A stretch of 64,000 nt of DNA from Eubacteriales bacterium (GTDB taxonomy: Bacteria > Bacillota > Clostridia > Christensenellales > Aristaeellaceae): the NCBI GenBank assembly GCA_031556335.1, contig JAVBTE010000032.1:92-64091 (forward strand), in the 5' to 3' direction. Shown piece by piece: positions 8,269-62,332 of this stretch (position 1 is its first letter; every line of letters starts with the position of its first letter). The notes under the pieces were generated by a model that saw only the letters and a program-made list of their open reading frames with translations, did not search any database and was not told the origin of the DNA. The position numbers and the translations under genes were made by a program.

Positions 8269-8745
8269 TTATGGTTGGGGAGTTCCGGCGTTTTCGCCGC
8301 CTTTCTTCCCAAAAGCCCAAAACTTGTTGAGCACATAATTCAGGGGAATGGTGATGAGCAGGTTGATGACCGGGGCCAGGCTTTGGGACACGCCCAGCGC
8401 TTCCACCCACAGGGTGAGCAGGGCGGTGCCCAGCAAAAACGTGCTGCCGTAGGAAAGAAAGGCCTTGCCGTAGGCCGCCAGATGCCGGGCAAAGGAGAGG
8501 GCCCCCTGGCTTTTGAACACATAGCGGCTGTTCCAGTAGTAGGCGTTGGTCACGCTGACCACAAAGGCCAGCACGTTGGCCAGCTGATAGTGCAGATGAA
8601 GGCCGTGGAGGCACAGCTGGTATACCAAAAGGGAGATGAGCGTGTTGGAAACGCCCACGATGCCGAATTTCACAAACTGCACCAGAGAACCATACTTCGG
8701 ATTTTCCTCCAGGGCCCGAAGCCAGGCTTTGAAGCGTTTGATCAT
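8269..8745 (-). CDS. GtrA family membrane protein (putative polyprenol-linked sugar flippase)
   Basis: 158 aa with four hydrophobic segments; LVQFVKFGIVGVSNTLISLLVY and NYVLNKFWAF are typical GtrA signatures. Confidence 0.85.
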   Translation of the reverse strand: MIKRFKAWLRALEENPKYGSLVQFVKFGIVGVSNTLISLLVYQLCLHGLHLHYQLANVLAFVVSVTNAYYWNSRYVFKSQGALSFARHLAAYGKAFLSYGSTFLLGTALLTLWVEALGVSQSLAPVINLLITIPLNYVLNKFWAFGKKGGENAGTPQP

Positions 8746-10094
8746 GCCTGCCCAACCGCTTCCCGAATGACCTGTGCCATGTAATCCAGCTTGTCCTCCG
8801 TCAGGCCGGGATACACGCCCACCCAGAAGGTGTCCCGCATGATGCGGTCGGTCTCGGTCAGCTCGCCCGCCACCCGGAACCCCTGGCCGCTTTTGCGCAG
8901 CTCGTCAAAGCAGGGGTGCTTCAAAAGGTTGCCCGCAAAGAGCATCCGGGTTTGCACGCCGCTTTTTTCAATGTGGGAAACCACCTTGCGGCGGTCGACG
9001 CCTTCCCGGCAGGTGAGGAGATAGCCAAACCAGCTGGGCCGGGAATGGGGCGCGGCTTCCGGCAGGATGAGCCGGTCTGAAAGGGGCTGGAAGGCTTCGT
9101 TCAGGCGGGCAAAATTGGCCCGGCGGCGCTCCACAAAGCCGGGGAATTTTTCCAGCTGGGCGCAGCCCACGGCGGCTTGCAGATCGGTGGCCTTCAGGTT
9201 ATAGCCGAAATGGGAGTAGACGTATTTGTGGTCGTAACCGGCGGGAAGCTCGCCGTATTGCCGGTCGAACCGGTGGCCACACAGGTTGTCCACCCCGGAG
9301 GGGCACATGCAGTCCCGGCCCCAGTCCCGGAAGGAGCGGCAAATTTTGTGCAGCAGTGGGTTTTGGGTATACACCGCGCCGCCTTCGCCCATGGTCATGT
9401 GGTGAGGCGGGTAAAAGCTGCTGGTGCCCAGGTCCCCCACGGTGCCGGTGAAGCGCTCAGTGCCGTCCAGGGTGTAGCGGGAGCCCAGGGCGTCGCAGTT
9501 GTCCTCAATCAGCCAAAGCCCATGCTGGTCGCAGAAAGCCTTGACAGCGGCCAGGTCGAAGGGGTTGCCCAAGGTGTGGGCTACCATGACGGCCTTGGTT
9601 TTGGGGGAGAGGGCCAGGGCAAGCCTGGAAACGTCGATATTGTACTGGGGAATGGTAACGTCTACAAAAACGGGCACGGCGCCGTATTGCAGCACGGGGG
9701 TCACCGTGGTGGGGAAGCCTGCCGCCACCGTGATGACCTCGTCTCCCCGAAAAATGCGCCGGTCCCCCAAAAGCGGGGAAGTGAGGGTCATAAACGCCAG
9801 CAAATTGGCGGAGGAACCGCTGTTCACCAGGGAGCAATGCTTTACGCCCAGGTAGGCGGCCAGTTTTTCTTCAAAAAGATCGGTATACCGCCCGGAGGTC
9901 AGCCAAAATTCCAGGGAAGAATCCACCAGGTTCATCATTTCTCGGCGGTCATACACCCGGGAGGCATAGGGGATGCGCTGCCCTTCCTCAAAAGGCGTTG
10001 GCTGGTTGTGAAAGACATCGCAATATTCGCCCACCAGGGCCAAAATTTCTTCCCGGGCCTGGTTTGGGGTTTTTCCTTCAAAGTGCTTGCTCAT
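8742..10094 (-). CDS. rfbH: DegT/DnrJ/EryC1-family enzyme of the RfbH type (CDP-4-keto-6-deoxy-D-glucose 3-dehydrase, E1)
   Basis: MSKHFEGKT...YASRVYDRREMMNLVDSSLEFWLTSGRY...LVNSGSSANLLA resembles RfbH/DdhC. The ATG at 10094 forms an ATGA overlap with the rfbG stop. Confidence 0.8.
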   Translation of the reverse strand: MSKHFEGKTPNQAREEILALVGEYCDVFHNQPTPFEEGQRIPYASRVYDRREMMNLVDSSLEFWLTSGRYTDLFEEKLAAYLGVKHCSLVNSGSSANLLAFMTLTSPLLGDRRIFRGDEVITVAAGFPTTVTPVLQYGAVPVFVDVTIPQYNIDVSRLALALSPKTKAVMVAHTLGNPFDLAAVKAFCDQHGLWLIEDNCDALGSRYTLDGTERFTGTVGDLGTSSFYPPHHMTMGEGGAVYTQNPLLHKICRSFRDWGRDCMCPSGVDNLCGHRFDRQYGELPAGYDHKYVYSHFGYNLKATDLQAAVGCAQLEKFPGFVERRRANFARLNEAFQPLSDRLILPEAAPHSRPSWFGYLLTCREGVDRRKVVSHIEKSGVQTRMLFAGNLLKHPCFDELRKSGQGFRVAGELTETDRIMRDTFWVGVYPGLTEDKLDYMAQVIREAVGQA

Positions 10095-15845: not shown

Positions 15846-16988
15846 ATGAAGATGAAAAACGCGAAGCGGGTGCTCAAAATCCTTTGGATGTGGACCGTGG
15901 TGGCCTCCATCGCCATGGCGGCCACAAGCTGCGCCCTGGCCGAAAAACTGGGCACCGTCATGGCGGAGAATGCCGAAACCCTGGCAAAGACTACGTTTTC
16001 CGCCAAGGGCACCATTGCCAAGCCCGACACCCTGACCCTGATCGCACCCATGGGCGGGCAGGCCGGGGACTTCACCTGGGCCACCGGAGACGCGGTGAAG
16101 GCCGACGAACTGGCCTTTGCCATTACCCCCACCCAGCTTTACGCGGCCAACGACGGCGTGGTGGTGGGGCTTCAGGCCAAGGTGGGGGATCTGGCCACGG
16201 CGGTGCAGGCCCAATACGGCGCGCTGTGTTATATTGACCGGGAGGACATCTGGCATGTGAACGCCTCCACGGTTTCCGCCTACGACGACCCGGTGAACCG
16301 GGACGTGAACATCGGCGATGTGCTGCGGGTGCGCAACGGCACCGGCAGCAACGCCATCCGGGGCATGGGCACCGTGATCTCGCGGACCGGTCGCAACTTT
16401 GTGGTGGAAATGCCCAAGGAGAAATTTGAGATCGAAAAGTCCGTCAACCTCTATTTTGGCGAGGGCGACAACTACAAGGAAAAAGAACAGGTGGGCAAAG
16501 GCACGGTGGTGCGCCCGGCCATGTTGCCCGTAAACGGCGAGGGCGTCGTTGCCCAGGTGCTGGTGAAAAACGGCGACAAGGTAAAGCGCGGACAGCCGCT
16601 TTTCACCCTGGACAGCCCCAGCGCCACCTATGGCGACAAACCCGCAAAGCCCGAAGTACGCTTCCCCGAAGCGGGCCTTGTGAATGAGGTGCTGGTGCGC
16701 CCCGGGCAGTTCCTGGCCCAAAACCAGGCCGTGGCCACCCTGTTGCCCGTGGGCGCGCTGGAAGCCGCCCTGGAGGTGGATGAGCTGGACATTGCCAAGG
16801 TGCAGGTGGGCCAGGCCGTGCGGGTGACCGTGGACGCCTATTCCGGCCAGGAGCGCACGGGTACCGTGCGGGAGATTCGCGCCATGGGCCTCACCGTGCT
16901 GGACACCACCAAGTTCCTCGTCAAAGTCGCCTTCGACAAGGCTGACGACCTGATGATCGGAATGCACGTGACCGGGTATTGGGATTGA
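15846..16988 (+). CDS. HlyD-family / efflux periplasmic adaptor subunit
   Basis: N-terminal signal/lipobox-like segment (IAMAATSC), a lipoyl-like hairpin VKNGDKVKRGQPLFTLD, and a beta-barrel region VDELDIAKVQVGQAVRVTVDA. Confidence 0.8.
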   Translation: MKMKNAKRVLKILWMWTVVASIAMAATSCALAEKLGTVMAENAETLAKTTFSAKGTIAKPDTLTLIAPMGGQAGDFTWATGDAVKADELAFAITPTQLYAANDGVVVGLQAKVGDLATAVQAQYGALCYIDREDIWHVNASTVSAYDDPVNRDVNIGDVLRVRNGTGSNAIRGMGTVISRTGRNFVVEMPKEKFEIEKSVNLYFGEGDNYKEKEQVGKGTVVRPAMLPVNGEGVVAQVLVKNGDKVKRGQPLFTLDSPSATYGDKPAKPEVRFPEAGLVNEVLVRPGQFLAQNQAVATLLPVGALEAALEVDELDIAKVQVGQAVRVTVDAYSGQERTGTVREIRAMGLTVLDTTKFLVKVAFDKADDLMIGMHVTGYWD

Positions 16989-17385
16989 CGGGGGGATGAG
17001 GGGACGGGGAGACGCCAGGGGTGCTGGTTCAGCTTTCACGGCGCGCGCATCACTGCCGTTCACGCGCACCTAAAGCTTCCCGCTTCGGGTCGCTAGCGGC
17101 TGCGCCGCTGTGTCCACCGGGCACACGCTTCCCTTTGCGCCCCAGGACCCCGTCGGGGCTTCGCCCTGAACCCATGATGACCGCGTTTCACGCGGTCAGG
17201 GGATATTCAGGAAATATAGATGAAGAGAACAACAACCCAAAACAGCAAACGAAAAGGCCGGGCAAACGCCCGGCCAATGATCTTGTTCTGACCGCGTGAA
17301 ACGCGGTCAATGATGGGGTCTGGGGGCTTGCCCCCAGGCGGGGCGCAGGGGTGAAACCCCTGCTAACCTTCCCCCCGTCCTTTCC
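16989..17385. repeat. intergenic multi-hairpin cassette, copy 2 (full palindromic copy with an extra insertion)
   Basis: G-tracts at 16990-17021, hp2 17153-17169, hp1 TGACCGCGtttcaCGCGGTCA 17178-17198, core with terminator, hp1' TGACCGCGtgaaaCGCGGTCA 17289-17309, hp2' 17320-17337, hp3' GCAGGGGtgaaaCCCCTGC 17345-17363, then a C-tract. Confidence 0.8.
17256..17275 (-). terminator. terminator in the core of cassette copy 2
   Basis: GGCCGGGC-aaac-GCCCGGCC. On the minus strand it is followed by the T-rich TTTTCGTTTGCTGTTTT. Confidence 0.6.
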
Positions 17386-17731
17386 CCCGCTTGTACGCCA
17401 CAATCTCCGCCACGAGTTCATAAGGAAAGGGCTTGGCGTGGGGAAACTGGATGCCGCCTTTGGTACGCTTGTAGTCCGCGAGCTTGTCGCCCATGGCCGC
17501 GATGGCCTCCGGGCCCGGATGCACGCCAACGTGCCGGGTTTCGCAAGCAAAGTAGATGAGGGGTTTGCCGTTCAGCTTGTAGCCGGGCATGCCGTAGGAG
17601 ATCAGTTCCGTTGCGTCGGGGGCGGCGGCAAGGATGGCGGCGCGGATATCGGACAGGCGCTGCCGCAGTTCGGCCGGCTTCAAAGCGATGTATTCGTCCA
17701 CGGTCTCAGGCGCTTTTTTAGGTTCAGTCAT
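17363..17731 (-). CDS. DUF1801 (YdhG-like) domain protein
   Basis: MTEPKKAPETVDEYIALKPAELRQRLSDIRAAILAAAPDATELISYGMPGYKLNGKPLIYFA is typical of DUF1801. Confidence 0.75.
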   Translation of the reverse strand: MTEPKKAPETVDEYIALKPAELRQRLSDIRAAILAAAPDATELISYGMPGYKLNGKPLIYFACETRHVGVHPGPEAIAAMGDKLADYKRTKGGIQFPHAKPFPYELVAEIVAYKRGKGRGEG

Positions 17732-25391: not shown

Positions 25392-25420
25392 AAAAACCAC
25401 CAGCTTTGCTGGTGGTTTTG
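25392..25420. terminator. bidirectional terminator after the VanW gene
   Basis: AAAAACCACCAGC-tttg-GCTGGTGGTTTT, a perfect stem with flanking A and T runs. Confidence 0.8.
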
Positions 25421-25464
25421 ATATGGATCAAATCCAACGCTGCGTGAAAGGCACGTTCGCTTTT

Positions 25465-25561
25465 TCCTTTTCACCGCGTGAAACGCGGCGAAATCAGGGG
25501 TTCAGGGCGTAGCCCTGACGGGGTGCAGGGGTGGAACCCCTGCATACGTATCCCCCTCCTA
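25465..25561. repeat. intergenic multi-hairpin cassette, copy 3 (half copy facing uppP)
   Basis: hp1' TCACCGCGtgaaaCGCGGCGA 25471-25491, hp2' TCAGGGCGTAGCCCTGA 25502-25518, hp3' GCAGGGGtggaaCCCCTGC 25525-25543, and a C-tract abutting the uppP stop. Confidence 0.8.
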
Positions 25562-35300: not shown

Positions 35301-35853
35301 CAACTACCCGGAGGGCGCTTCCATCATAACGGCTACCGTGGGCGGCGTGGGAACCAGCAGCGAGTTTGAGCTGCGCATGGCCCAGCACCGCCTTGCCGAG
35401 AACATCATCTATATCCGGCCCGCCAAGCTGGGCGACATTGCCTGGCTGGACCTGAACAAGAACGGCCTTGTGGACGGCGGCGAGCCCATGATTCCGGGCG
35501 TGACCGTGACGCTGATGAAGGACGGCAAGGCCGTTGCAGAAACCACCACCGACGTCTACGGCTACTACCTCTTCCCGGACGTGTACCCGGGCGAGTATAC
35601 CTTGCAGGTGAAAGCCTATCCGGAGCTGAGCATCACAAAGCCGGTGCCGGAGCTGCGCATGATCAGCAGCTGCCTTACCAGCGGCGACGGAAACAGCGCC
35701 GCCAGCGAGTCTTTCACCGTGGCAAGCGGCACCACCCATTTTGATTTTGACTTGGGCTACGTGCTGCTGGACGGCCAAACCATGCCAAGCGCCATCGTCG
35801 CCCCGCCCCAGCAGGACTGGACCGGCGCTTATGTGTCGGGCTCGGGGAACTAG
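29353..35853 (+). CDS. giant secreted repeat protein with many SdrD-B-like / Cna-B (prealbumin-fold) domains and no recognisable anchor
   Basis: Signal peptide MMVFTANIPFGKSRALSKACALLVALCMLMGAFAFASAEG. At least 15 units of about 100 aa carry the signature D-x-N-x-N/D-G-x-x-D...GV.V.L...G......TD..G.Y.F..L..G.Y. Confidence 0.85.
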   Translation: MMVFTANIPFGKSRALSKACALLVALCMLMGAFAFASAEGVTTLTVGLKGVSSDDAQVWRSLSISGRFDVQTPDGRVLGRVRANPSDKEEAAGESDTLVISDASLRTVTLVPVAEDFAEGFACQGNTEVEIKPGENNMATVLAYAKQGLFTLRDTLENGKPAPGGEYVVLDETGAMMLSVLTDDQGRYASAKALPSGQYQLVQMRAAEGAVPNGQGTPFTIQTYFGNETDIAAVTVSSKPAPSLGGEGLKALETQPFEQGDDEDTNAYFSKLVVTTGSDGTNTVPLKDFTVTLLPTALKDKVGESRAPGVAVVVESVTPRIETEGVAVKAQGLNSQGVPVGQPKTGASGETLVLEDAVGAAITYVDAATGEAVVPEGFKGGDITASLVYLPITASPTEYAPSEAQIRAEVSCSVQYPDRDGNSLVTAKSEAEPLPIDLVIDDGKLDVAYSAEALLNGAGGGSVRLTLQDMENGGLPQNTALAVVLPQGARAVDTGLGEGLRLIRTAEQDMVAFSLDQLSKSQVEIPIKAGRMSSLELLVLDPQGFPKTLDNPEGASINAPEHRKSPLLDTLLGQAQGLYAVVPCTLASSLDLGEAAPCDKQLLTGTMYEDGDQSGSRTQDEPAAVNRGVLLRGDISGCYYGAVTDEDGKYAIFGQADEADASGMLIAVMPDNTMSVGAHQTGKVERKGIAIPDTDYPISYLKMGMIRGQVALDEGQPFAGATLTLSFNGQDLATVETSSTGAYSFGGLSTGNFRLSVSIPKEQDLALVAKENAKQENNWQMVLEEVPLVYGQEAEIPFQVASLGAVEGTLTRGGQPAKDMAVTLKTPKGETLSTKADEKGGYRFEGLQAGQYELSLELTGNLSVVAVDGQPAEARSGYQATLALAAGATVESAIALEETASITGRISQLGGGQDIAVASLNVQQSVKTQDDGSFAFEGLPAGDYTVYAPLPEGKDLPGDSPWKVTQRGDMMWTSVALEAGSAFALPEAETIEMTSIEGVAYQDVNGDLSYQQGEQLMSGVTVALQKKQGDSWTDIATAQTNDYGVFCFRNLEEGVYRVSSMVNTQGFYVAAVGGKSLTIGDSGVMTTGEIRLSTGKRLTGVADVALGMPGRLHFAAFSDSNENGARGEYERPIAGVLVEVLEADGETAMASGTTNTTGEVVLEGIRPGQHALRVSLPDGYMFSKKGEGSGLGVSCVEGEEATAVSEPFNFTGGQAVEAGVGAVPVGSFSGKVWSDDDNNGIMDPQEAGVAGVTLSLAGEKTKSEYTLVTDATGEYRFSRLRNDTYHLTAQLPDGMLFARYSLEGGDKRSVFTVEGTKATRDFPVVGAADVMNKNVGVILKGVVEGIAFLDENYNGVYDEGEKGYKNVTLELIKASNSKSMGKTVTDENGAFRFENLRGGEYRLRAVLPDDGSIFTLVPDAREGQVNLFAQREGRRENTIAPITIGNGGSAHAVVGVARGATLKGTVFLDPNYDGIMKGKEKKASGVKVELVDSHGRLAAADTTNANGTYLLEGVMPGEYVLRVLRKDNYAFTRLRPDENGGSWIKKLEGDYGVTDPIPVVMGQEIDGVNAGMLPSSTVTGVLFDDLNDNGLRDEGEMGMEDAKARLVSKDAEIDLTAAVNADGAYFFDGVMPGKYTITYLLPQNVEMAKVVKDGNTLKHQGLENTTDSFSVEMGVEDQRPLVGAVRLGTFEGVLFHDANANGERDEAEEPLGGMEITLTPDKKDLEIATAKADKDGHFSVTNLRPAGYQLGLKLPDGYIFSADIQASSLTMDTVQEQKLTLPWKALINRQENQVGAVKPATVTGYAWLDENRDGQQGSEERLLSGLGFELVNEADGKVAKRGNSAEDGKMTFAAVRPGTYTVRFRIPSQSEPAGESDATLLPESGMMVQKGIVVPEGGSFGEIHAGLVCKTSIAGALTLEENGAADKLEGLTVKLYESGQDDPVQTQKTGANGGYRFDGLWPGQYRVEAELPAGMIFVKPGDPNYPEGASIITATVGGVGTSSEFELRMAQHRLAENIIYIRPAKLGDIAWLDLNKNGLVDGGEPMIPGVTVTLMKDGKAVAETTTDVYGYYLFPDVYPGEYTLQVKAYPELSITKPVPELRMISSCLTSGDGNSAASESFTVASGTTHFDFDLGYVLLDGQTMPSAIVAPPQQDWTGAYVSGSGN

Positions 35854-36125
35854 GGGGCGGGGGGACGGAGGGGGACGAAGGGGACGCCAGGGGCGTCGCC
35901 CCTGGATCCCATCAGGGCTACGCCCTGAACCCCTTATTTCACCGCGTTTCACGCGGTGAAAGGGAAATGAATGAAAACGCTCCGGCATGGACCGGGGCGT
36001 TTTCAATTTAAATTCTTCGTAAATGAATCAGACCGCGTGGAACGCGGTCTGAAAACGGGTCCAGGGCGTAGCCCTGGGCGGGGTTCTAGGGGCGCAGCCC
36101 CTAGGGTTCCCGTCCCTCCCCCCGC
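35854..36125. repeat. intergenic multi-hairpin cassette, copy 4 (best-preserved full palindromic copy)
   Basis: G-tracts 35853-35893, hp3 35887-35905, hp2 35912-35928, hp1 35937-35961, core terminator, hp1' 36029-36051, hp2' 36061-36077, hp3' 36086-36104, C-tract 36109-36123. Confidence 0.85.
35974..36004. terminator. bidirectional terminator in the core of cassette copy 4
   Basis: AAAACGCtCCGG-catgga-CCGGgGCGTTTT with A and T runs on either side. Confidence 0.7.
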
Positions 36126-38482
36126 TCCGGGGCCTCGGAGCGGTGTCGGTCCACCATGAGCAAAGTGAGGATGGTCATGTCGTCCCTGGGGGTGCCGCCG
36201 CTGGCCAGCAGGGCGGCGCGGAGCAGCGCGTCGGCCATGCGCTGGGGCTGAATGTAGAGGTTGTCTAAAATGGCGCGTTCCATTTGCTCTGCGTCGCAAA
36301 GCACGTCGGCCACGCCGTCGCTCATCACGATGAGGATGTCCCCGCTGTGCATGCGAAAGCTTTGGCTGGTGGGCTGCACTTCCTCCAAAATGCCCAGGGG
36401 CAGGGAGGAGCCGTGAACCTCTTTCAGATAATTGCCGCGCACCACCCAGGAGGCGCAGGCCCCCAGCTTTTCGCTCTGCACCTCGCCGGACCACAGGCTG
36501 AGGTCAAAAAGATCCACGGTGGCGAAGCGTTCCTCGTCCATGACGGAAAGGATCATGCCGTTTACCGCGCTGATGGCCTGCTTGCGGGTATAGCCGGCCT
36601 CCAGGCACAGCAGCATCAGCTCCAGGGTTTTGTTGCTGATTTGGTGGGCCCCGCCGCCGTGGCCCATGCCGTCGCTGAGCAACAGCAGAAAGCGTCCGCC
36701 CTGGCACTGCTTGGCGGCCATGGCGTCGCCGCTGACCGCCGCTTCCTCCCAGGCGCTGGGCTGCCCCGCGCAAAGGGTGGCCACGCCAAGCTCCACGCTG
36801 TACAGGGGCAGTTCTTCCAGCTCGATGCGGTTTTTGATGGTGCGCACAGCGCCCAGGGACAGGCCGGAATCCTGCTCCAGATAGCGCAGCAGCTTTTCAG
36901 GCTTGTTGCCTATGGGCCGCAGGGCGTCTACCTCAATGGCGGCCTGCAGGTGCCCGTCCACCCGGCGGGCATAGCATAGGGTGCCGGGAAAGCGGATGTC
37001 CCGCATGGCTTTGTTGATTTGGTAGGCGGAGTGCAAATCGCTGAGGGTTTCCCCGCAGGTGAGGGTGCGAATTTCCGAGATGGCCCCGGCCATGGCCTCC
37101 AGGTGGGTGACGGTCATATCCCGCTCGAAGCGGGCTTTGGCCTTGGCGGCCAGAACAGACTGCCGGCTTTTCAGCAGTTGCGCCAGGGCGGCGGGAACGG
37201 CCTGCAACCGGACACAGGGGCAGTCGTGGATTTTCGCCAGGATTTCATGGGGCGTTTCGTGGGCCAGGGCAATGCGCATCAGCTCCGCCAGGGTCAGCTC
37301 GGTGCGCTGCTGGTTGCGGCTCCAGCAAAGTTCCCGGTCGGGACAGTCCACGCACAGCACGTTGCCAAGCTCGGCCGGGGTGGGCGCTCCGGTCTGAATG
37401 GGCGCCACGGCAGGCAGGGCGGCGGCCATGCCCCGCATGGCGCTTTCCCAGCGCAAAAGCCGCTGCTGCACAAACAGGCCCTCCATGTTGCGGGCAGCGG
37501 GGGCCGGGCCTACCCCCAGGGACCGCAGCCGTTCGGTGACCCGGTCGCCGGTGAAGGGAAAGATCAGGCAGCCGAGAAGCACCGTCACATGGGGCAGGGA
37601 AGGGGAGGCCAGCGGGGTCAGGTAGAAGGCGAACATGTGGGCGGCCAGATAGCACAGGCCGGAAAGCCAGCGTTTTTTTTGCCCGGAAACCAGCCCGGCA
37701 AGGAACCCGCCCAGGGCCAGGTGGATGGTGAGGCGGCCGTCGTGGCCGCACAGGGCCAACGTCAGCCCGCACAGCAGCCCCCCCGCCGCCCCGGCCATGC
37801 CCCCCAGGGCATAGGAAAACATCAGCGTGCAAACTACGGCCAGCAGCTGGCCCAGGTTGAGGGTGGCAATGCGCAAATAGCCCAGGCCGGAAAGCAAAGT
37901 GAGCAAAAAGAGAAGCACGCAGGCTTTATCCTCCAGGGTCAGCATGGGTCGGGCGTCCTTCAAAAGGCGAAGTCCCCGCTGATAGGCAAGGGTCAGCCCC
38001 ATGCACAGGGGCACGGCGGCGCAAGAAAGCAGAATGAAAAGGCTGTTGCCGGAAAACAGCGAGACGACGGCCCGGGGCATCATGGAAAGGCCGGCCAGCA
38101 GGATGAGGCCCACCGGGGTTTTGGGGCGCTGCAACAGGCAAAAGCTCCAAATGGCGAAGCAGCCCGCATATTGCCAAATGTCCAGGGAAATGCCCCAAAT
38201 CAGCCGCAACACAAAGGACGCCACCAGCCCCAGCAGGGGGAAGAGCGCGTCCAGACCCCGGGTTTCCCGGGCCAGCAAAAAGGCCGCGGCGCAGGGCGAG
38301 GGCACGCCGAACCAGGTGACAAAGGTAGACAGAAAGGCGCACAGGGAAACGCCCACAGGACGGCTGGAGACCTGGGCGAACGCGCACAGAAATTCCCACA
38401 GTTTTCGCCAGCCCGAAGGATGGTATTCTTTTCTGGCCACCGCCGGATTCGGCCCCATGCCATGCTCAGTGCCGATTTGCAT
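36101..38482 (-). CDS. spoIIE: stage II sporulation protein E (PP2C phosphatase with a polytopic membrane domain)
   Basis: About 10 N-terminal hydrophobic segments, then the PP2C region LLLLSDGMGHGGGAHQISNKTLE...GDILIVMSDGVADV. The start is uncertain: ATG at 38482 chosen, ATG at 38458 and TTG at 38584 are possible. Confidence 0.85.
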   Translation of the reverse strand: MQIGTEHGMGPNPAVARKEYHPSGWRKLWEFLCAFAQVSSRPVGVSLCAFLSTFVTWFGVPSPCAAAFLLARETRGLDALFPLLGLVASFVLRLIWGISLDIWQYAGCFAIWSFCLLQRPKTPVGLILLAGLSMMPRAVVSLFSGNSLFILLSCAAVPLCMGLTLAYQRGLRLLKDARPMLTLEDKACVLLFLLTLLSGLGYLRIATLNLGQLLAVVCTLMFSYALGGMAGAAGGLLCGLTLALCGHDGRLTIHLALGGFLAGLVSGQKKRWLSGLCYLAAHMFAFYLTPLASPSLPHVTVLLGCLIFPFTGDRVTERLRSLGVGPAPAARNMEGLFVQQRLLRWESAMRGMAAALPAVAPIQTGAPTPAELGNVLCVDCPDRELCWSRNQQRTELTLAELMRIALAHETPHEILAKIHDCPCVRLQAVPAALAQLLKSRQSVLAAKAKARFERDMTVTHLEAMAGAISEIRTLTCGETLSDLHSAYQINKAMRDIRFPGTLCYARRVDGHLQAAIEVDALRPIGNKPEKLLRYLEQDSGLSLGAVRTIKNRIELEELPLYSVELGVATLCAGQPSAWEEAAVSGDAMAAKQCQGGRFLLLLSDGMGHGGGAHQISNKTLELMLLCLEAGYTRKQAISAVNGMILSVMDEERFATVDLFDLSLWSGEVQSEKLGACASWVVRGNYLKEVHGSSLPLGILEEVQPTSQSFRMHSGDILIVMSDGVADVLCDAEQMERAILDNLYIQPQRMADALLRAALLASGGTPRDDMTILTLLMVDRHRSEAPERGEGREP

Positions 38483-38625
38483 ATGCCGCCCCCCATACCA
38501 TGCTTGTAAAACCAGTATAGCCACTGGGTTTGCGGCAATATGTCGGAAGAGGGTAAAAAGCTTGTCGTTTTTGGACGGGAGCAAGGCAAACCGGCGGGTA
38601 TTGGAATGGAAACTTCCGCCCGGGG

Positions 38626-40726: not shown

Positions 40727-40877
40727 GGCGGAAGGCCCCAAACCCTATGACCGAATGCGGCTGAAATTGATCCGCCTGGGGCTGCATGGGCCGAGCCGGA
40801 TTCTTTTGCACCGGGGCATTACGCCTCCGCCCCTGGCCGGGCAGAGTGACCCGGAGGCCAAACAGCAGGAGAAAGAA

Positions 40878-40914
40878 AAGAGCGAGTAGCCTTTCGGCCA
40901 CCGCTCTTTTTTTA
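40878..40914 (+). terminator. terminator after the FMN-binding gene
   Basis: AAGAGCG...(inner GCC-tttc-GGC)...CGCTCTT followed by TTTTTTT. Confidence 0.6.
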
Positions 40915-41035
40915 CTTTTCTTTTTCACCGCGTGAAACGCGGTGAAAGAAGGGTTCAGGGGCGTTGCCCCTGGGCGGGGTTTTAGGGGCGGCAGCCCCTA
41001 AACGCCCCCCGCATCGTCCTCCCCATTCGCCCCCC
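40915..41035. repeat. intergenic multi-hairpin cassette, copy 5 (half copy facing nagA)
   Basis: hp1' TTTCACCGCGtgaaaCGCGGTGAAA 40923-40947, hp2' CAGGGGCGTTGCCCCTG 40956-40972, hp3' TTAGGGGCggcaGCCCCTAA 40982-41001, and C-tracts up to the nagA stop. Confidence 0.8.
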
Positions 41036-42148
41036 TTACACCGTCCCCACGAAGGCCCAGTCCTTGCGGAACCGGGTGAGGATGGCGGAAGAACCCTGGC
41101 GAAGCACGCCAAAGTCGCCGTTGTGAATGGAGAGGGCTGGGGTGCGGGTGGTCATGAGCGCGGCGTCTTCGGGAGCGACGCCAAAGGCGATGAGGTTTTG
41201 CAGGGCGCGGACAAGGGTAAGGGTGCTGCCGGCCAGGGTGCCGTTTTGAAGCCGGGCCGCGCCGCCACTTACAAACACATCCTGGCCGCCCAGCTGATAG
41301 GTTCCGTCGGGCATGCCGGCGGCCTCCATGGCGTCGGTGATGGCCACGGCCAGGCGGGGTCCCTTGCAGCGAACGATGAGCCGCACGATGTCCGGATGCA
41401 GGTGAATGCCGTCGCAGATGAACTCGCAGGCCAGGCGGTCGTCCACCAGGGCCGCGCCGGGCACGCCGGGGGCCCGGTGGCTGAGCGGCGACTGGGCGTT
41501 GAAGGTGTGGGTCACATGGTTGGCGCCGGCCTTGGCCGCCTGGTGCACCACCTCGGCGGTGGCGTCGGTGTGGCCCAGGCTGACGGAGATGCCGCTTTTT
41601 TGAAGGCGGGCGATGAAGTCCAGCGCGCCGGGCAGTTCCGGGGCCAGGGTCACCAGCCGCACGATTTCCTCATGGTCGCCCACGTAGTTTTTCCAGTTTT
41701 CTTCCGTGGGCGGCACAAAAAACTCTTTTCGCTGTGCGCCTGCCTTTGAGGGTTCCATGAAGGGCGCTTCCATGTGAGCGCCAAGCACCACTGCGCCTTC
41801 GGGTTCGGGCCGCTGCATCACGGCATGAATGCCCTCAAGGGCGGCGCGGGTATCCGCAGGGCTGGCGCTCATGGTGGTGGGGCAAAAGGCCGCCACGCCA
41901 AACTTGCGCAGTTCCCGGCTCATGTGCCGAACAGCCTCTTCGCCGTTCATGGTGTCCTTGCCCTTGAAGGCGTGGATGTGCACATCCACAAAGCCGGGCA
42001 GAAGGAAGTCTCCCTGAAAATCCAAAGTTTCTTCCCGCGGGGCGGAGAGGTCCGGCCCGATGGCGGCGATCTGTCCGCCTTTGAGAAGCACTTGGGTGTG
42101 CGGCACGAAGGTCTCGTTCATAAAGGCGTTGGCGTTGGTAATGAGCAT
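41036..42148 (-). CDS. nagA: N-acetylglucosamine-6-phosphate deacetylase
   Basis: MLITNANAF...LLPGFVDVHIHAFKG...SLGHTDAT...THTFNAQS. Confidence 0.9.
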   Translation of the reverse strand: MLITNANAFMNETFVPHTQVLLKGGQIAAIGPDLSAPREETLDFQGDFLLPGFVDVHIHAFKGKDTMNGEEAVRHMSRELRKFGVAAFCPTTMSASPADTRAALEGIHAVMQRPEPEGAVVLGAHMEAPFMEPSKAGAQRKEFFVPPTEENWKNYVGDHEEIVRLVTLAPELPGALDFIARLQKSGISVSLGHTDATAEVVHQAAKAGANHVTHTFNAQSPLSHRAPGVPGAALVDDRLACEFICDGIHLHPDIVRLIVRCKGPRLAVAITDAMEAAGMPDGTYQLGGQDVFVSGGAARLQNGTLAGSTLTLVRALQNLIAFGVAPEDAALMTTRTPALSIHNGDFGVLRQGSSAILTRFRKDWAFVGTV

Positions 42149-53979: not shown

Positions 53980-53994
53980 TGAAGGAGCGTGCCT

Positions 53995-54909
53995 ATGACG
54001 TGGCAAGAGACCGTGAACTTTTTTTCCCTGTGCCTGCCCAAAAACCTTGGCAAGGCCATCGGGGCCCTGCCCGCCGGGGAGCTGCGGGAAATTCGCGTTC
54101 GGGCCGGGCGGCCCGCCCAGCTGATGGTGGGCAGGGAGGAAAAGACCATTGGGGCCCTGGTGCCCTCGCCGGAACAGGTGAACGCCATTGCGGAGTCCCT
54201 ATCTGAACATGCATTGTACGCCCGGGCGGAGGAAACCCGCCAGGGGTTTGTCACACTGAGGGGCGGGCACCGCATGGGCCTTTGCGGCCGGGTCATCGCC
54301 CAGGGGGGCACGGTGCGGTCCCTTCGGGAGATCAGCTCCCTGTGCATTCGGGTGGCGGGCCAGTGGACAGGCACTGCCGACCCGCTGGCGGCCCGCCTGA
54401 AAAGCGACGCGGGCCGGCCGCAAAGCCTGCTGGTGATCGGCCTGCCGGGCACGGGAAAAACCACGCTGCTTCGGGACGCCTGCCGCCAGCTTTCCGACGG
54501 AGGCCTGCGGATGTGCGTGTCCGATGAGCGCAGCGAGCTGGCCGCAGTGTACCGGGGCATGCCGCAGCTGGACGTGGGACGGAACACGGATATCCTGGAC
54601 GGCGCGGGCAAGGAGCTGGGCCTTCGGTGGCTGCTTCGGGCCATGGCCCCGGACGCGCTGGTCACCGATGAGATCGGCGGGCTGGCGGACGCCCAGGCGG
54701 TGCTGGAAGCGGCCCAAAGCGGGGTGGGGGTTTTGACCAGCGTGCACGGCAGGGACATTGAAAGCGTCATGGACCGGGGCGCGCTGTACCACCTGATGCG
54801 GCGCCATGTGTTTTCGCTGTTCGCCGTGATGGATGAAACCCGCACGGGGACGGTGGCGGCCCTGTATGACGGCCGCATGCAGCCTTTGCAAATGGAGGCG
54901 AAAGCCTGA
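53995..54909 (+). CDS. spoIIIAA: stage III sporulation protein AA (AAA+ ATPase)
   Basis: Walker A GLPGTGKTTLLRD, Walker B LVTDEIG. First gene of a collinear spoIIIA operon. Confidence 0.85.
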   Translation: MTWQETVNFFSLCLPKNLGKAIGALPAGELREIRVRAGRPAQLMVGREEKTIGALVPSPEQVNAIAESLSEHALYARAEETRQGFVTLRGGHRMGLCGRVIAQGGTVRSLREISSLCIRVAGQWTGTADPLAARLKSDAGRPQSLLVIGLPGTGKTTLLRDACRQLSDGGLRMCVSDERSELAAVYRGMPQLDVGRNTDILDGAGKELGLRWLLRAMAPDALVTDEIGGLADAQAVLEAAQSGVGVLTSVHGRDIESVMDRGALYHLMRRHVFSLFAVMDETRTGTVAALYDGRMQPLQMEAKA

Positions 54910-55439
54910 TGCTGGGCGGTTTTGGGGCGCTGTGCTGCTTCGCGGCGTGCACGGGGGTGGGGCTGATGGCCCGGGACCGTTGCCGGGAGCGGCTGGACGC
55001 GCTGATGGCCTGGACGGACGCGCTTTCCGCCATGCGGCTGCTGTTTCGGGAGGAGCGGCTGCCCATGGACGAATTGCTATTGGAATGCGCCAAGGCGGCG
55101 GACAGCCATGGGGCGGCGGGAAAGGTGCGCCAGCGGCTGCAGGGCGCGGGCCGGGGCCTGGCCCTGGAACCCTCCCTGACCGTGGCGGAGGCGTATGGCA
55201 GGGCTTGCCGGGACACGCCCCTTCCGGCGGAGGGCCAGGAGGAGAAAAGCGCATTGGACGTGCTGTTCCGGCAGCTTGGCAGCGGCACGGCGGCCATGCG
55301 GGAACAGGCGGCGGCAGGGTGCCTGCGGCGGCTGGCCCTGACTGTGGAAAAAGCCAGGGAAAAGGCGGAAAAAAGCGGGCAGCTATACGCAAAACTGGGC
55401 GCACTGGGCGGGCTGATGCTGGCCATTGCGCTATGGTAG
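54909..55439 (+). CDS. spoIIIAB: stage III sporulation protein AB
   Basis: N-terminal TM, size, and position between AA and AC. TGATG overlap with AA. Confidence 0.78.
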   Translation: MLGGFGALCCFAACTGVGLMARDRCRERLDALMAWTDALSAMRLLFREERLPMDELLLECAKAADSHGAAGKVRQRLQGAGRGLALEPSLTVAEAYGRACRDTPLPAEGQEEKSALDVLFRQLGSGTAAMREQAAAGCLRRLALTVEKAREKAEKSGQLYAKLGALGGLMLAIALW

Positions 55440-55451
55440 GGAGGAACACGA

Positions 55452-55652
55452 ATGGTACAGGTGGATGTGCTGTTTCGGCTGGCTGGGCTTGGCATTATTG
55501 TGGCGGTCATCAGCCAGGTGCTGAACCGGGCGGGCCGGGAGGAGCTGGGCACGCTGACCACGGTGGTGGGGCTGGTGATTGCGCTGTTTATGGTGGTGGA
55601 GCTGGTGAGCCAGCTGTTTAGCAGCGTCAAGAGCATTTTCCAGCTCTATTAA
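55452..55652 (+). CDS. spoIIIAC: stage III sporulation protein AC
   Basis: 66 aa, two TM segments, FRLAGLGIIVAVISQVLNRAGREE. Confidence 0.85.
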   Translation: MVQVDVLFRLAGLGIIVAVISQVLNRAGREELGTLTTVVGLVIALFMVVELVSQLFSSVKSIFQLY

Positions 55653-55656
55653 GGCC

Positions 55657-56043
55657 ATGGAACTTTGGCAATGGACGGGCCTGGCGGTGGCGGCGGCCAT
55701 CCTGTGCATGGCGGTGCGCAAGCAGCAGCCCGAAATCGCGGGCCTGTGCGCCCTGGCGGCGGGGGCCATGCTGCTTGTAAGCGCCCTGGAGAGCGTGGCC
55801 GCCGTGCGGGAGACCTTTCAGCGCATCGCCGCCATGAGCGGCTTGCATGAGGGGTATCTGAACCTGATGTTGAAAATTTTGGGCATCGCTTACGTGGCGG
55901 AGTTTGCGGCCCAAACCTGCCTGGACATGGGCGAAAGCGGCCTGGCCATGAAGGTGGGCCTGTGCGGAAAGCTGACGATTTTCGCCTTGGCGGCCCCCAT
56001 GCTTTTGAGCCTTTTGGAAATGATCCTGGAGTTGGCGCCATGA
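55657..56043 (+). CDS. spoIIIAD: stage III sporulation protein AD
   Basis: 128 aa, LKILGIAYVAEFAAQTCLDMGESGLAMKVGLCGKL. Confidence 0.85.
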   Translation: MELWQWTGLAVAAAILCMAVRKQQPEIAGLCALAAGAMLLVSALESVAAVRETFQRIAAMSGLHEGYLNLMLKILGIAYVAEFAAQTCLDMGESGLAMKVGLCGKLTIFALAAPMLLSLLEMILELAP

Positions 56044-57194
56044 GAAACACAAAAATCGTATTCCTGGTGTGCGTGGCGGCGATCAGCCTTTGGCTGGCCC
56101 TGCCCGCCCAAGGGGAAGGCCTGCAAAAGGCCGTCACCGACCAGCTGGCCACCCTGGATTTGGGTCGGCTTTCAAAGGCGGTTTCGGAGCAGGAGCTGGT
56201 GCACGGGAACGCGGGGGATCTGCTGAAAAGCCTGGCCAGCGGCAAGCCCATTCTGGACGGGCAACAGTTGATGGACTGGGTGATGAACAAGGCCACGGGG
56301 GTTTTTCAGGACAGCCTGTGGCGCATGACCCGGCTTTTGATCCCCGCGCTGCTGCTGGGCATTCTGGCCCATTTGCGGGCCGATCTGGGGAAGGAGTTCG
56401 TGCTGAAAGCCTGCAATTACGCGGGCATGCTGCTGGTGCTGGGCTTTTTGGTGGCGGACATGAACGAGCATGTGCGGCTGGCCCAAAGCGCCATTTCGGA
56501 CATGGCCACCACCATGCAGGCCCTGTTCCCCTTGCTGGTAACGCTGCTGGCCGCCGTGGGCGGCACGGCCAGTGCCGCGTTTTTTCAGCCCACGGTGGTG
56601 GCCGCCAGCGGCACCATGACCGCCCTGATTCAAAACGTGACGCTGCCTTTGGCGGTGGGCACGGCGGTGCTGACCATGGTGGGCGGCCTGTGCGAGAATT
56701 TGAAAATTTCCCGGCTGTGCAAGCTGTTTCAGCAGGTGGCCCACTGGACGCTGGGGTTCAGCTTTACGGTGTTTATCGGGGTGATGATGGTGCAGGGCCT
56801 GGGCACGGCGGCGGTGGACGGGGTCAGCATCCGCACGGCCAAGTACGCCATCGACAACTTCATTCCCATCGTGGGCGGCATGTTTGCCGACACGGTGGAC
56901 ACGCTGGTGGGCTGCTCCCTTCTCATTAAAAACGCGGTGGGCATTTTGGGGCTTCTGCTGCTGGCGGGCAAGCTGCTGACGCCCATTTTGCAAACGGTGT
57001 GCACCTTGCTACTATACAACGCCACCGCCGCCGTGCTGGAACCCGTGGCGGACTCGCCCCTAAGCCGCCTGATTGGCGATTTTTCCCAGGTGTATACGCT
57101 GCTGTTCATCATCCAGCTGAGCGTAGGGGCCATGTTTGTGCTGCTGGTGGCCCAAATGTTGGTGGTGGGGACTTTGACGGTGATGCTGAGGTGA
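56040..57194 (+). CDS. spoIIIAE: stage III sporulation protein AE
   Basis: Signal peptide MRNTKIVFLVCVAAISLWLALPAQGEG, then a polytopic region with IRTAKYAIDNFIPIVGGMFADTVDT. ATGA overlap with AD. Confidence 0.85.
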   Translation: MRNTKIVFLVCVAAISLWLALPAQGEGLQKAVTDQLATLDLGRLSKAVSEQELVHGNAGDLLKSLASGKPILDGQQLMDWVMNKATGVFQDSLWRMTRLLIPALLLGILAHLRADLGKEFVLKACNYAGMLLVLGFLVADMNEHVRLAQSAISDMATTMQALFPLLVTLLAAVGGTASAAFFQPTVVAASGTMTALIQNVTLPLAVGTAVLTMVGGLCENLKISRLCKLFQQVAHWTLGFSFTVFIGVMMVQGLGTAAVDGVSIRTAKYAIDNFIPIVGGMFADTVDTLVGCSLLIKNAVGILGLLLLAGKLLTPILQTVCTLLLYNATAAVLEPVADSPLSRLIGDFSQVYTLLFIIQLSVGAMFVLLVAQMLVVGTLTVMLR

Positions 57195-57198
57195 GGAA

Positions 57199-57711
57199 AT
57201 GGCCGGTTTTTTGCGGAACATCGTGGCCCTTTCGGGGATCTGGGCCCTGTGCGAGCTGCTGCTGCCGGAGGGCGGCGTGCAGAAAATGGCCCGGCTGTTC
57301 ATCAGCCTGTTGGTGATGACGGTTTTGGTGGCCTCCCTGGCGGACGCGCTGTCGGAGTTGGGCGGCAAAAGCCTGCCCTCCTTGGCAGGGGCCCTGGGGG
57401 ACGTGGCCAGGGAAAGCGCCTCCGCCCCCTTGGCGGCGGAGGCTGGCTATACCCAGGCCTATTTGCGGTCCCAGGCCAACCAGGCGGAGGACGCCTGCGT
57501 GCGCATCGCCAAAAACGCCGGGTATGTCGCCCGGGCGAAGGTCTACCTGCAGGCCGGCGGAGCCCTGGAAAGGATCGAGCTGTTGGTGGAAGGCCCCCTC
57601 CGGCAGGACAGCCCGCCGCTGATTGACCCGGAGCAGCTTCGGCAGACCATTACAAAGGCTTTTCAGGCGGAGGATGCCCGCGTGAGGCTGGATGGGGATG
57701 AGACACGGTGA
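57199..57711 (+). CDS. spoIIIAF: stage III sporulation protein AF
   Basis: N-terminal LRNIVALSGIWALCELLLPEGGVQKMARLFISLLVM, and its position in the operon. Confidence 0.75.
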   Translation: MAGFLRNIVALSGIWALCELLLPEGGVQKMARLFISLLVMTVLVASLADALSELGGKSLPSLAGALGDVARESASAPLAAEAGYTQAYLRSQANQAEDACVRIAKNAGYVARAKVYLQAGGALERIELLVEGPLRQDSPPLIDPEQLRQTITKAFQAEDARVRLDGDETR

Positions 57712-58082
57712 AAGCATTGCTTGGGGGGCTGAAAGGAAAGCGCCTGTGGTGGGTTTTGGCGGGGCTGCTGGTGATTGTCTGCGCGTTTGCGGCTTTTCAG
57801 GGGCCGGGCACCACGGCCACGGGCGGCAGCACAGAGGAAAAGCGCATTGCCCAGGTGCTGTCCGCCATTGCGGGGGCGGGGCAGGTGGAGGTGGCGCTGT
57901 TTTATGAAACAGAAGTCGCGGCCTTTGGGGGCGGCGGGAAAGCAAGGCCCATTGGCGCGGTGGTGGTGGCCCAGGGCGCGGAGGACATGGGGGTGCGGCT
58001 GTCCCTGATTCGCGCCATGCGAACGCTGCTGGGCCTGCCGGAAACCGCGGTCGATGTATTTGTAATGGAGGAGAGAAAATGA
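57708..58082 (+). CDS. spoIIIAG: stage III sporulation protein AG, short form
   Basis: One TM plus the C-terminal GAVVVAQGAEDMGVRLSLIRAMRTLLGLPETAVDVFVME, which is typical of SpoIIIAG. GTGA overlap with AF. Confidence 0.7.
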   Translation: MKALLGGLKGKRLWWVLAGLLVIVCAFAAFQGPGTTATGGSTEEKRIAQVLSAIAGAGQVEVALFYETEVAAFGGGGKARPIGAVVVAQGAEDMGVRLSLIRAMRTLLGLPETAVDVFVMEERK

Positions 58083-58624
58083 CAAACACATGGAAGAAGC
58101 AGGAAAAACCAAAGCGCAAGGGCTCCGGGGCGCGGATTTTGGTGCTGTCCGGCCTGTTGGCCCTGGCGGGCGTTCTTTTGTGGACGCAGCAAGGGGGCCT
58201 GTTTACCGGCGCAAGCAAAGGCGGCGGGTCTGCCGCGCAGCCGCCCGCAACCACCCGGCAACCCCAGCCCACGGCCCAGGGCCGGAGAACCCTGCGGGAA
58301 GAGGCCTATGACAAGGACATGGCCTCTTTGAAGGCGCTGACGGAAAACCAGGGGGTGAACGCCGACATCCGGGAGGACGCGGCCAAGCGGATAGAGCAAA
58401 TGGTGGCCGGGCACCAAACGGAGCTTGCCATTGACGAAGCCCTGCGCGGCGCGGGCTTTGCCCCCAGCCTGACCTTGCTTGAAAACGGCGCCCTCACCGT
58501 GATGGTGGAGGCGCAGACGTTGACCGGAACGCAAAGCGCCACGATCCTGTCGCTGTGCGCGTCTCATACGGACGTGGGGGTGGAGAATATTCGCATTATG
58601 ACCGGGGAAACAATGGAAAAGTGA
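58079..58624 (+). CDS. spoIIIAH: stage III sporulation protein AH
   Basis: N-terminal TM, coiled region, and C-terminal ...TVMVEAQTLTGTQSATILSL...ENIRI, consistent with the SpoIIIAH RBM. ATGA overlap with AG. Confidence 0.75.
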   Translation: MTNTWKKQEKPKRKGSGARILVLSGLLALAGVLLWTQQGGLFTGASKGGGSAAQPPATTRQPQPTAQGRRTLREEAYDKDMASLKALTENQGVNADIREDAAKRIEQMVAGHQTELAIDEALRGAGFAPSLTLLENGALTVMVEAQTLTGTQSATILSLCASHTDVGVENIRIMTGETMEK

Positions 58625-62233: not shown

Positions 62234-62332
62234 AGAAGGTAGTGGCGGGGAGAAAGCCTCCCTGTTCTACATAGATTCGCTGAATATTGAAAAAATCGCG
62301 TATGAAACGCATGTCTGAGGAGGATACACTTA

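Follow-up and report, generated by a model that had tools for sequence, protein, structure and literature searches.

Interspersed palindromic repeats have been well studied in Proteobacteria and a few Firmicutes, and not in uncultured gut and digester Clostridia. The repetitive extragenic palindromes (REPs) of Enterobacteria and Pseudomonas, together with the bacterial interspersed mosaic elements (BIMEs), are short, GC-rich, imperfect palindromes that occur densely in intergenic regions and prefer convergent gene junctions. In Escherichia coli, REPs serve both as terminators and as stabilisers and accompany raised expression of convergent gene pairs (bioRxiv 10.64898/2026.03.23.713779), and REP termini are known to supply TAG stop codons to flanking open reading frames (ORFs) (PMC3733652). 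The BOX elements of Streptococcus pneumoniae are Gram-positive ordered mosaics (boxA-boxB(n)-boxC) with a variable number of internal modules (PMC3049150). A 64,000-nt stretch of contig JAVBTE010000032.1 from a Eubacteriales bacterium (assembly GCA_031556335.1), hereafter the window, contains a family of polar three-hairpin repeats, here called arms, located at convergent gene junctions. A first-pass annotation had described the reference copy at 35854-36125, between a giant repeat-protein gene and spoIIE, as an imperfect palindrome built from hairpin modules hp3, hp2 and hp1 on either side of a central hairpin, and all of these modules, mirror copies included, were read there.

The full 64 kb was searched, with filters off, using a covariance model based on 17 aligned arms. 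Exactly seven matches exceeded 35 bits (35–93 bits); the remainder, mostly hp1 read on the opposite strand, scored 22.5 bits or less. The seven arms, of ~100 nt each, and one relic are found at five convergent junctions, namely the reference locus and the four further loci at which recurrence had been reported, and the earlier counts of seven hp1 (25 nt), six hp2 and eight hp3 hairpins (both 17–20 nt) were reproduced. That all five junctions are convergent was confirmed on a gene map based on GC content at third codon positions, with the flanking genes supported by a scan of 50 ORFs against Pfam. Arms occur at ~1 per 9 kb and have ~65% GC in a genome of ~61% GC. All are intergenic or overlap last codons only, and none lies inside a gene body. 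The hp1 core ACCGCGN5CGCGGT is present seven times in the window against 0.38 expected, and a count of seven was reached in none of 100 shuffles. The other four convergent junctions of the window have gaps of 10–24 nt or, once, a plain terminator; most of the roomy convergent junctions are filled by the family.

Read away from the neighbouring gene, an arm consists of a G-rich head, hp3, a CCCCGC linker, hp2, an ACCC linker and hp1, followed by a locus-specific intrinsic terminator. The head is a variable series of G-rich tandem repeats, (G3-6 A C/N)n, often with GGAGG inside, and its units include GGGGAC, GGGAGGAC, GGGGAAC and GGGGAGTAC, the last repeated five times in L002:3449-3497 (L numbers designate retrieved loci). 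The consensus is NNAGGGG-loop-CCCCTNN for hp3, YCAGGG-CNNNG-CCCTGR for hp2 and TTTSACCGCGT-TTC-ACGCGGTSAAA for hp1; every stem is a near-perfect palindrome closing a 3-nt loop. The ACCC linker is invariant, and CCCCGC is conserved. Conserved stems with variable loops had been claimed, which is correct for the stems, where changes are compensatory, but not for the hp1 loop, which is conserved and orientation-specific, reading TTC (TTTCA) in the sense direction in five of the seven window arms and TCC and TTT in the other two. Modules can also be exchanged or missing: in some copies GAAACGCCCAT-NNN-ATGGGCGTTTC stands in place of hp1, in L037:2726-2810 the terminator itself does so, and some arms (L013, L012, L017) have no G head.

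The repeated unit is the polar ~100-nt arm and not the ~270-bp palindrome, which the first-pass annotation had taken as one element. The two arms of the reference locus are 73% identical, arms at unrelated loci or in other genomes span 67–85%, and the centre of each cassette is a different terminator-like hairpin outside the repeated family. As the identity between the two reference arms is no higher than that between unrelated arms, the palindrome is composed of two independent arms facing one terminator. After hairpins hp1, hp2 and hp3 comes A-rich or C-rich sequence rather than a U-run, and they do not qualify as intrinsic terminators; only the central hairpins do, and the hp1 copy on the spoIIE side was flagged once, weakly.

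The earlier proposal that the family is under selection on structure is supported by covariation among 29 arms from eight genomes, in an alignment that was fitted to the model and somewhat favours structure. In this set, standard pairs account for 94.8% of cells as compared with 82.5% in column shuffles, and sliding the pairing by 1–3 columns leaves at most 50% paired. Changes on both sides were observed in 15 of the 20 pairs (61 cells). Of 17 arms, nine have C-G and eight have G-C as the pair flanking hp1, with no breaks, and CCGCG/CGCGG in hp1 is changed to CCGTG/CACGG in L002 and L005. G.U pairs outnumber A.C pairs by 23 to 11 (p = 0.058), an excess that mildly suggests the sense strand as the folded strand. 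Predicted folds of five of the seven window arms have z values of -3.2 to -5.0; in these, the G head pairs with both C-rich linkers, so that hp3 and hp2 extend from a three-way junction and hp1 comes after it. Pairing of the head would explain the conservation of the linkers, with the caveat that headless arms (L013) retain them.

Each window arm is situated between a stop codon and a terminator or overlaps the last codons of the neighbouring gene. Non-coding heads begin straight after the stop (stop/head TAG/GGGG, TAA/GGGG, TAG/GAGG and TGA/CGGG). Two arms supply the C-terminal tail and the TAG stop of their neighbours, SpoIIE and a DUF1801 protein. The C-terminus of SpoIIE reads LLMVDRHRSEAPERGEGREP, of which ERGEGREP is encoded by the head, and the TAG is located within the hp3 stem. 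The tail APERGEGREP replaces a variable 8-10-aa tail of the orthologues after the conserved LLMVDRxRSE; their tails beyond RSE are equally long and unrelated to it. The SpoIIE Pfam domain ends at residue 808 of 827. The C-tract of the reference locus does not, then, lie between two stop codons as had been stated: 36104-36128 is inside the SpoIIE ORF, with the stop (36101-36103) in the mirror copy of hp3, and the DUF1801 gene, with its stop at 17363-17365, is a like case.

The covariance model identified 35 arms in ~350 kb, made up of the window and the retrieved loci, and in all of them the head faces a gene. The head stands at a same-strand stop in ~24 arms and at an opposite-strand start with a ribosome-binding site (RBS) in eight (L006, L009, L002:3217, L015 at ftsY, L012:2763, L012:6732, L004 and a phage capsid gene). 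The hp1 side is never close to a gene, except in an arm that fills the whole gap (L024:14362-14443). Since eight of the 35 heads are at start codons, in antisense, the rule is head to gene and hp1 to central terminator, rather than sense to mRNA. Thus, the orientation toward incoming mRNA that the first-pass annotation had described holds within the window and fails outside it. Some EPI_MAG_00147 arms (L005:7368-7494, L024:324-514) come after a terminator-like hairpin, one that belongs to the repeated modules in its own right, and a purely 3'-untranslated region (3'-UTR) reading is therefore not universal.

A GTDB-wide exact scan with the hp2-hp1 pattern returned uncultured Clostridia only, bar three matches (L001, L003 and L010) rejected as chance or unrelated occurrences of the hp1 core. 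Arms are present in Eubacteriales EPI_MAG_00147 and EPI_MAG_00301, Candidatus Limiplasma CA_117, Clostridia RGIG7318, Clostridiales Zod_Metabat.1384 and GCA_031548115, hence in at least six uncultured Clostridia genomes beyond that of the window. The DNA flanking the GTDB copies could not be aligned to the window, the sites being non-orthologous. The UppP and SpoIIE proteins of the window are 73–84% and 60–73% identical, respectively, to those of arm-carrying metagenome-assembled genomes (MAGs), which places the window in the same group. A spoIIIA operon (53989-58624; SpoIIIAA, AB, AE and AH by Pfam) and spoIIE (36101-38584) identify the source as an endospore-forming Firmicute.

Arms are also carried by two near-identical IMG/VR phage contigs, L032 (UViG_3300023371_001598) and L034 (UViG_3300029705_002597). 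These arms (hp2-hp1; L032:788-2126 and L034:1644-2982) are found on either side of a 395-aa capsid-like gene with their heads inward, one directly at the stop (TAA/CCAGGGG) and the other in antisense ~45 nt ahead of the RBS. After each comes the same extra hairpin, CCGCCGGAGG...CCTCCGGC, which is also seen in chromosomal RGIG7318 copies (L004, L012). A blastn search of GenBank phages and PLSDB plasmids with the whole cassette gave no match. An hp1-pattern scan of JGI metagenomes gave eight contigs, two of which (L015, L017) carry family members, and the family is therefore rare in that collection. Searched against Rfam 15 at gathering thresholds, the whole window gave a tRNA only; a permissive E-value scan of the locus gave Pab19 as the best match, at 25 bits against a gathering score of 55. 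Nothing was found in the literature on repeats in this uncultured clade. The family is thus previously undescribed, and it is carried by ~60% GC spore-forming uncultured Clostridia related to Candidatus Limiplasma and by at least one phage.

The hp1 core is found in other elements as well. The remaining JGI contigs include one proteobacterial contig with classical GTAG REPs and four soil contigs (L016:2736-2822, L018:1543-1620, L019:1300-1377 and L022:618-695) with an unrelated element, ...CCCCGGAATGACCGCGTTTCACGCGGTCA(G/A)TTC(G/C)ACCGTCT, that contains the exact hp1 core; the same 21-nt palindrome is thus reused by another repeat family in other bacteria. The Alphaproteobacteria MAGs L001:6120-6290 and L003:3190-3360 share an element with GGGGAGGGGGACCATGCGAAGCATGGTGGAGGGGC flanking the hp1 core, CCACCGCGTTTCACGCGGTCC; it is G-rich and hairpin-rich, and otherwise unrelated.

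Comparison of orthologous junctions, as the first-pass annotation had recommended, revealed presence/absence variation. At the uppP/vanW junction, the window has an arm, L023 (GCA_031548115) a plain terminator, and L027 (GCA_031556815) a 35-nt gap. At the spoIIE 3' end, the arm of the window is represented by a 4-nt gap in the closest relative (L035/L036) and by a plain terminator in L037. The rsfS 3' end shows the reverse, with a full arm in L037 (818-920) and an ordinary terminator in the window. Thus, over evolutionary time single junctions have both acquired and lost arms. Among themselves, the five full arms of the window are 67–82% identical, and the best identities across genomes are 83–85%, whereas the flanking proteins are only 64–78% identical. 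Identity between genomes that is close to that within the window, together with non-conserved sites, points to an old population that turns over while staying near a consensus, as in REP/REPIN populations, and neither a recent burst nor a position-conserved regulator.

The genes flanking the five loci, with Pfam support, encode RNase J and a sugar dehydratase, HlyD and DUF1801 proteins, VanW and UppP, a giant surface protein and SpoIIE, and an FMN_bind protein and an amidohydrolase. At the reference locus, the plus-strand arm wA (35851-35966; 92.9 bits) is located 3' of the gene for a 2179-aa SdrD/CarboxypepD_reg repeat protein with its TAG stop at 35851-35853. It comprises the head at 35854-35886 ((G4-6AC)n with GGAGG inside), hp3 at 35887-35905, hp2 at 35912-35928, ACCC, and hp1 at 35937-35961, which has a perfect 11-bp stem and a 3-nt loop; the predicted RNA fold is -63.3 kcal/mol (z = -4.3). 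The central hairpin at 35972-36005, with an A-tract, a T-tract and a 14-bp stem that includes 8 GC pairs, is a candidate bidirectional intrinsic terminator. The minus-strand arm wB (36023-36128; 91.5 bits) at the spoIIE 3' end includes hp1 at 36028-36052, hp2 at 36061-36077, hp3 at 36086-36104 and the coding head at 36104-36128. The two arms form inverted repeats of 45 nt (84% complementary) and 48 nt (71% complementary).

The same modules recur in the same order at most loci, as had been claimed, but the locus at 2229-2521 is degenerate. Its plus-strand arm wG (2226-2392; 35.6 bits), 3' of the RNase J gene (Beta-Casp/RMMBL; TAG stop 2226-2228), has a short G head at 2229-2239, ~85 nt of extra sequence, hp3 at 2323-2343, no clean hp2, and hp1 at 2362-2386 with a TTT loop and one T.G pair. 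The central hairpin at 2407-2436, AAAGGCCTCCGC-TTTTTT-GCGGAGGCCTTT, was read by eye and was not flagged by a simple terminator scan. The minus-strand relic wH (2457-2524; 9.1 bits), 3' of a dTDP-glucose-dehydratase-like gene (stop 2522-2524), has the head GGAGCGGAGAA and retains only hp3 (2498-2514).

The plus-strand arm wC (16986-17205; 63.2 bits), 3' of the HlyD-family gene (TGA stop 16986-16988), is interrupted in hp3. Its head at 16989-17014 is followed by the two parts of hp3 at 17015-17021 and 17140-17146, hp2 at 17153-17169 with one G.U pair, and hp1 at 17178-17198. The insert of ~118 nt (17022-17139) is a second repeated module with homologues in L005 and L002. The central terminator is located on the minus strand at 17256-17275 and reads GGCCGGGC-GTTT-GCCCGGCC, then TTTTCGTTTG. 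Opposite, the minus-strand arm wD (17282-17392; 82.5 bits) at the 3' end of the DUF1801 gene has hp1 at 17289-17309, hp2 at 17320-17337 and hp3 at 17345-17363, abutted by the stop; its head (17366-17392) lies in the coding sequence and encodes the tail KRGKGRGEG. In EPI_MAG_00147, intergenic regions of several hundred nucleotides (L005:7620-8000, L002:1420-1660) are made up wholly of further short palindromic modules such as GGGGCTGCCGC-AGTT-GCGGCAGCCCC and GCGTGCGCAGTGCGCAC, one such module being the wC insert. The repeat repertoire of the clade is much larger than the three hairpins.

The remaining two loci have solo arms on the minus strand. Arm wE (25464-25561; 87.4 bits) is 3' of uppP/bacA (Pfam BacA; TAG stop 25559-25561) and comprises the head GAGGGGGAT at 25550-25558, in which AGGAGG overlaps the stop, hp3 at 25525-25543, hp2 at 25502-25518 and hp1 at ~25469-25493. 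Directly after the VanW-family gene, there is a bidirectional terminator-like hairpin at 25393-25419, AAAAACCACCAGC-TTT-GCTGGTGGTTTT. Arm wF (40918-41038; 91.8 bits) is 3' of the amidohydrolase gene (TAA stop 41036-41038), with its head at 41003-41035, hp3 at 40981-41002, hp2 at 40955-40973 and hp1 at 40923-40947; between it and the FMN_bind gene is a terminator-like hairpin with a T-run (40876-40915; stem 40902-40885 on the minus strand).

Elsewhere in the window, a 784-aa minus-strand ORF at 61588-63942 matches Pfam PF10712 (NAD-GH, E = 2.6e-141) and has atypical codon-position GC. As DnaK is encoded on the opposite strand (62332-64000, running past the window end), this ORF is the well-known antisense shadow of dnaK and no gene. 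The 89-nt tRNA-Gln called by ARAGORN on the minus strand at 7636-7724 lies inside a TPP-enzyme coding sequence (6425-8755), is absent from the Rfam output, and is probably a false positive.

It is considered moderately likely that the arms constitute a new mosaic repeat family of REP/BIME-like kind, transcribed along with the gene as a structured 3'-UTR block; among the options listed in the first-pass annotation (3'-UTR stabiliser or insulator, REP-like element, protein-binding platform), the REP-like one fits best. Arms would have spread via a trans-acting activity or recombination, with their sequence held near the family consensus. Two arms around one bidirectional terminator between convergent genes give the observed palindrome. 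As they lie between a stop codon and a terminator, the window arms should be transcribed as 3'-UTR. The G head would then pair with the two C-rich linkers to form the three-way junction, and by analogy with E. coli REPs the stable block probably shields the upstream coding region from 3'-to-5' decay and reinforces convergent termination. Because the structure begins at the stop codon, the terminating ribosome is probably affected too; Liang, Rudd and Deutscher reportedly found in 2015 that stop-proximal E. coli REPs have such an effect. We infer that the arms act at the RNA level.

A number of observations weigh against this explanation. There is no near-identical copy pair, hence no sign of recent transposition, and, in contrast to REPINs, the two arms of a cassette resemble each other no more than random pairs do. 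No transposase, REP-associated tyrosine transposase (RAYT) or integrase was matched among the 50 window ORFs scanned against Pfam, as the first-pass annotation had noted, and tblastn with IS608 TnpA and RAYT sequences of E. coli as queries, a weak test, gave no Y1/RAYT-like ORF in the Clostridia loci among the 354 kb of sequence searched. RAYT group 1 has been reported in Clostridia (PMC5581495). The sole RAYT-like match was on L020, an unrelated proteobacterial contig, where a truncated ORF (L020:31-250), matching YafM of E. coli at 59% identity across 34 aa, lies amid classical GTAGGGTGCG... GTAG REPs. Neither a target-site duplication nor sharp element ends could be defined, although the fuzzy borders make this test weak. 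The excess of G.U over A.C pairs is only 23:11, so that folding of sense-strand RNA is suggested at most, and near-perfect palindromes with 3-nt loops suit DNA hairpins equally well. The head is 0–2 nt after the stop in at least eight arms; a head-to-gene fit this tight is not what a passively tolerated selfish element would account for, and it hints at function.

An alternative is a dedicated host cis-acting RNA, a "gene-end cap" in which a ~100-nt structured domain with a G-rich, Shine-Dalgarno (SD)-like head is read by the terminating ribosome through anti-SD pairing, by a GGA/GGAC-repeat RNA-binding protein, or by an RNase. It would set mRNA fate at the 3' end, be mirrored at the 5' end, and be copied by phages to boost late-gene expression. 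Heads placed 0–2 nt past the stop in several genomes, GGAGG-like motifs in most heads, the invariant single-stranded ACCC linker, the conserved CCCCGC, strong covariation with G.U over A.C, conservation across genomes as high as within the genome, and the phage capsid gene bracketed at both ends all point in this direction. However, arms occur patchily, orthologous junctions in relatives do well without them, the flanking genes have no common functional theme, eight of 35 arms are antisense beside start codons, some lie past a terminator-like hairpin, and degenerate or interrupted copies persist (wG, wH, wC), which together make a dedicated host RNA rather unlikely. Less likely still is its widest form, in which an SD-like head at the stop engages the terminating ribosome or a dedicated RNA-binding protein and so sets termination, read-through and decay for hundreds of genes throughout the lineage, is borrowed by phages for capsid expression and is mirrored at 5' ends; if true, it would be a general portable module of post-transcriptional control in an uncultured gut clade.

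A platform acting on DNA, with the G-rich head as a G-quadruplex (G4) or i-motif and cruciform-prone palindromes at gene boundaries, would bind a nucleoid protein, gyrase or topoisomerase, or insulate units as a barrier to transcription or replication. This is decidedly unlikely, even though polarity follows the gene boundary and central terminator rather than the direction of transcription, stems are near-perfect palindromes with 3-nt loops, several heads have at least four G-runs with short loops, and E. coli BIMEs bind gyrase, IHF and Pol I. The geometry is also that of the Xanthomonas and Nostoc G4 heptamers (PMC4692102). Over the whole window, on the other hand, G4 motifs are not enriched (28 against 26 +/- 5 in a first-order Markov model), so that G4 formation is kept only as a hypothesis for the head; some arms have no head, the slight excess of G.U pairs favours a single folded strand, and to our knowledge there is no candidate binding protein. 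Ordinary miniature inverted-repeat transposable elements (MITEs), with the arms as long terminal inverted repeats (TIRs), a DDE transposase elsewhere in the genome and solo arms as decayed halves, are very improbable. The inverted-repeat layout with arm complementarity of 71–84%, the intergenic location, presence/absence between genomes and the nested insertion in hp3 of wC fit such elements, but each locus has its own centre, which looks like a functional terminator, arms of one cassette (73% identical) are no closer than unrelated ones (67–85%), intact solo arms are common (wE, wF, L037, L007, L008), cassette borders coincide with stop codons and have no direct repeats, and no transposase was found in the window or the retrieved loci.

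Other candidates were rejected on specific features. Integron attC sites are not compatible with flanking genes that are housekeeping and convergent, CRISPR arrays with the lack of regular spacing, or parS and Rex operators with the half-site spacing and with G-type hp1 copies that have no motif. ARAGORN finds no tRNA-like structure at the arms, and TTGACC within hp1 has no -10 partner for a promoter. For strand-specific insertion of the IS200/IS605 type, GC skew is positive throughout the window, yet three arms are on the plus and 4–5 on the minus strand. In practical terms, the arms will be a source of error in gene-end calling, terminator prediction and MAG assembly; they are also a strain-typing marker and a test bed for REP-like elements as selfish DNA versus portable 3'-UTR regulators.

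Among the described systems, the Correia elements (NEMIS) of Neisseria and other MITEs are similarly intergenic inverted repeats of ~100–150 bp, and Correia elements are co-transcribed, form hairpins and alter mRNA processing and stability. Correia elements, however, possess defined TIRs, duplicate a TA target and are conserved in their interior, whereas the cassettes have a locus-specific interior, complete single arms, no direct repeats at their stop-codon borders and no transposase found. Only the head resembles the G4 heptamers (GGGAATC)n of Xanthomonas and (GGGGAYT)n of Nostoc, which are tandem G-rich 6-9-nt units, poorly conserved among related species and unlinked to insertion sequences (PMC4692102). 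The geometry is the same, the 5' end of the G-strand lying 0–50 nt from an ORF start or end and sometimes over the stop codon (PMC4692102). Those heptamers stand alone, whereas the G tract of an arm heads three hairpins and has less regular units (GGGGAC, GGGAGGAC, GGGGAGTAC). Like the arms, BOX elements are intergenic with a stable predicted fold, and they are co-transcribed with their neighbours and have no transposase of their own (PMC3049150). The arms have a G-rich head and a polar tie to stop codons and terminators, and BOX elements have neither. BOX elements are AT-rich and, going by their description, unrelated in sequence to the arms; given the ~65% GC of the arms, homology is very unlikely.

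The family looks most like the REP/BIME/BOX kind of interspersed mosaic palindromic repeats, closest to the REP/BIME of E. coli. Seven arms with 21 hairpins in 64 kb agree with the definition of REPs as 20-40-nt GC-rich palindromes in many extragenic copies. As in BIMEs, conserved linkers build mosaics whose positions vary among related genomes, and the termini may overlap ORFs and donate a TAG stop (PMC3733652). Transcription within the 3'-UTR, where REPs form a decay barrier and partial terminator (bioRxiv 10.64898/2026.03.23.713779), would be a further likeness. However, the arms have no sequence similarity to known REPs, their host is a Firmicute, and the REP tag GTAG/CGTC is not conserved at their stem bases, which are TTTC or TTTG in hp1, YCAG in hp2 and CCAG, CTAG, TTAG or GCAG in hp3, and co-vary with their partners; the only GTAG occurrences are in a few EPI_MAG_00147 copies of hp3. 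Cassettes also differ from REPINs in that the doublets are neither regularly spaced nor co-evolving: hp1 and its mirror copy are 66 and 90 nt apart, with unrelated terminators as spacers, and solo arms are intact. A BIME is one palindromic unit in alternating orientation, whereas an arm has conserved linkers and three different hairpins in fixed order and the same orientation, preceded by a G-rich tandem head. The contribution of stop codons and C-terminal tails (SpoIIE, DUF1801) and the presence in phage are also distinctive, and the fixed three-hairpin order, the G-rich head and the strict head-to-gene polarity extend the REP/BIME concept.

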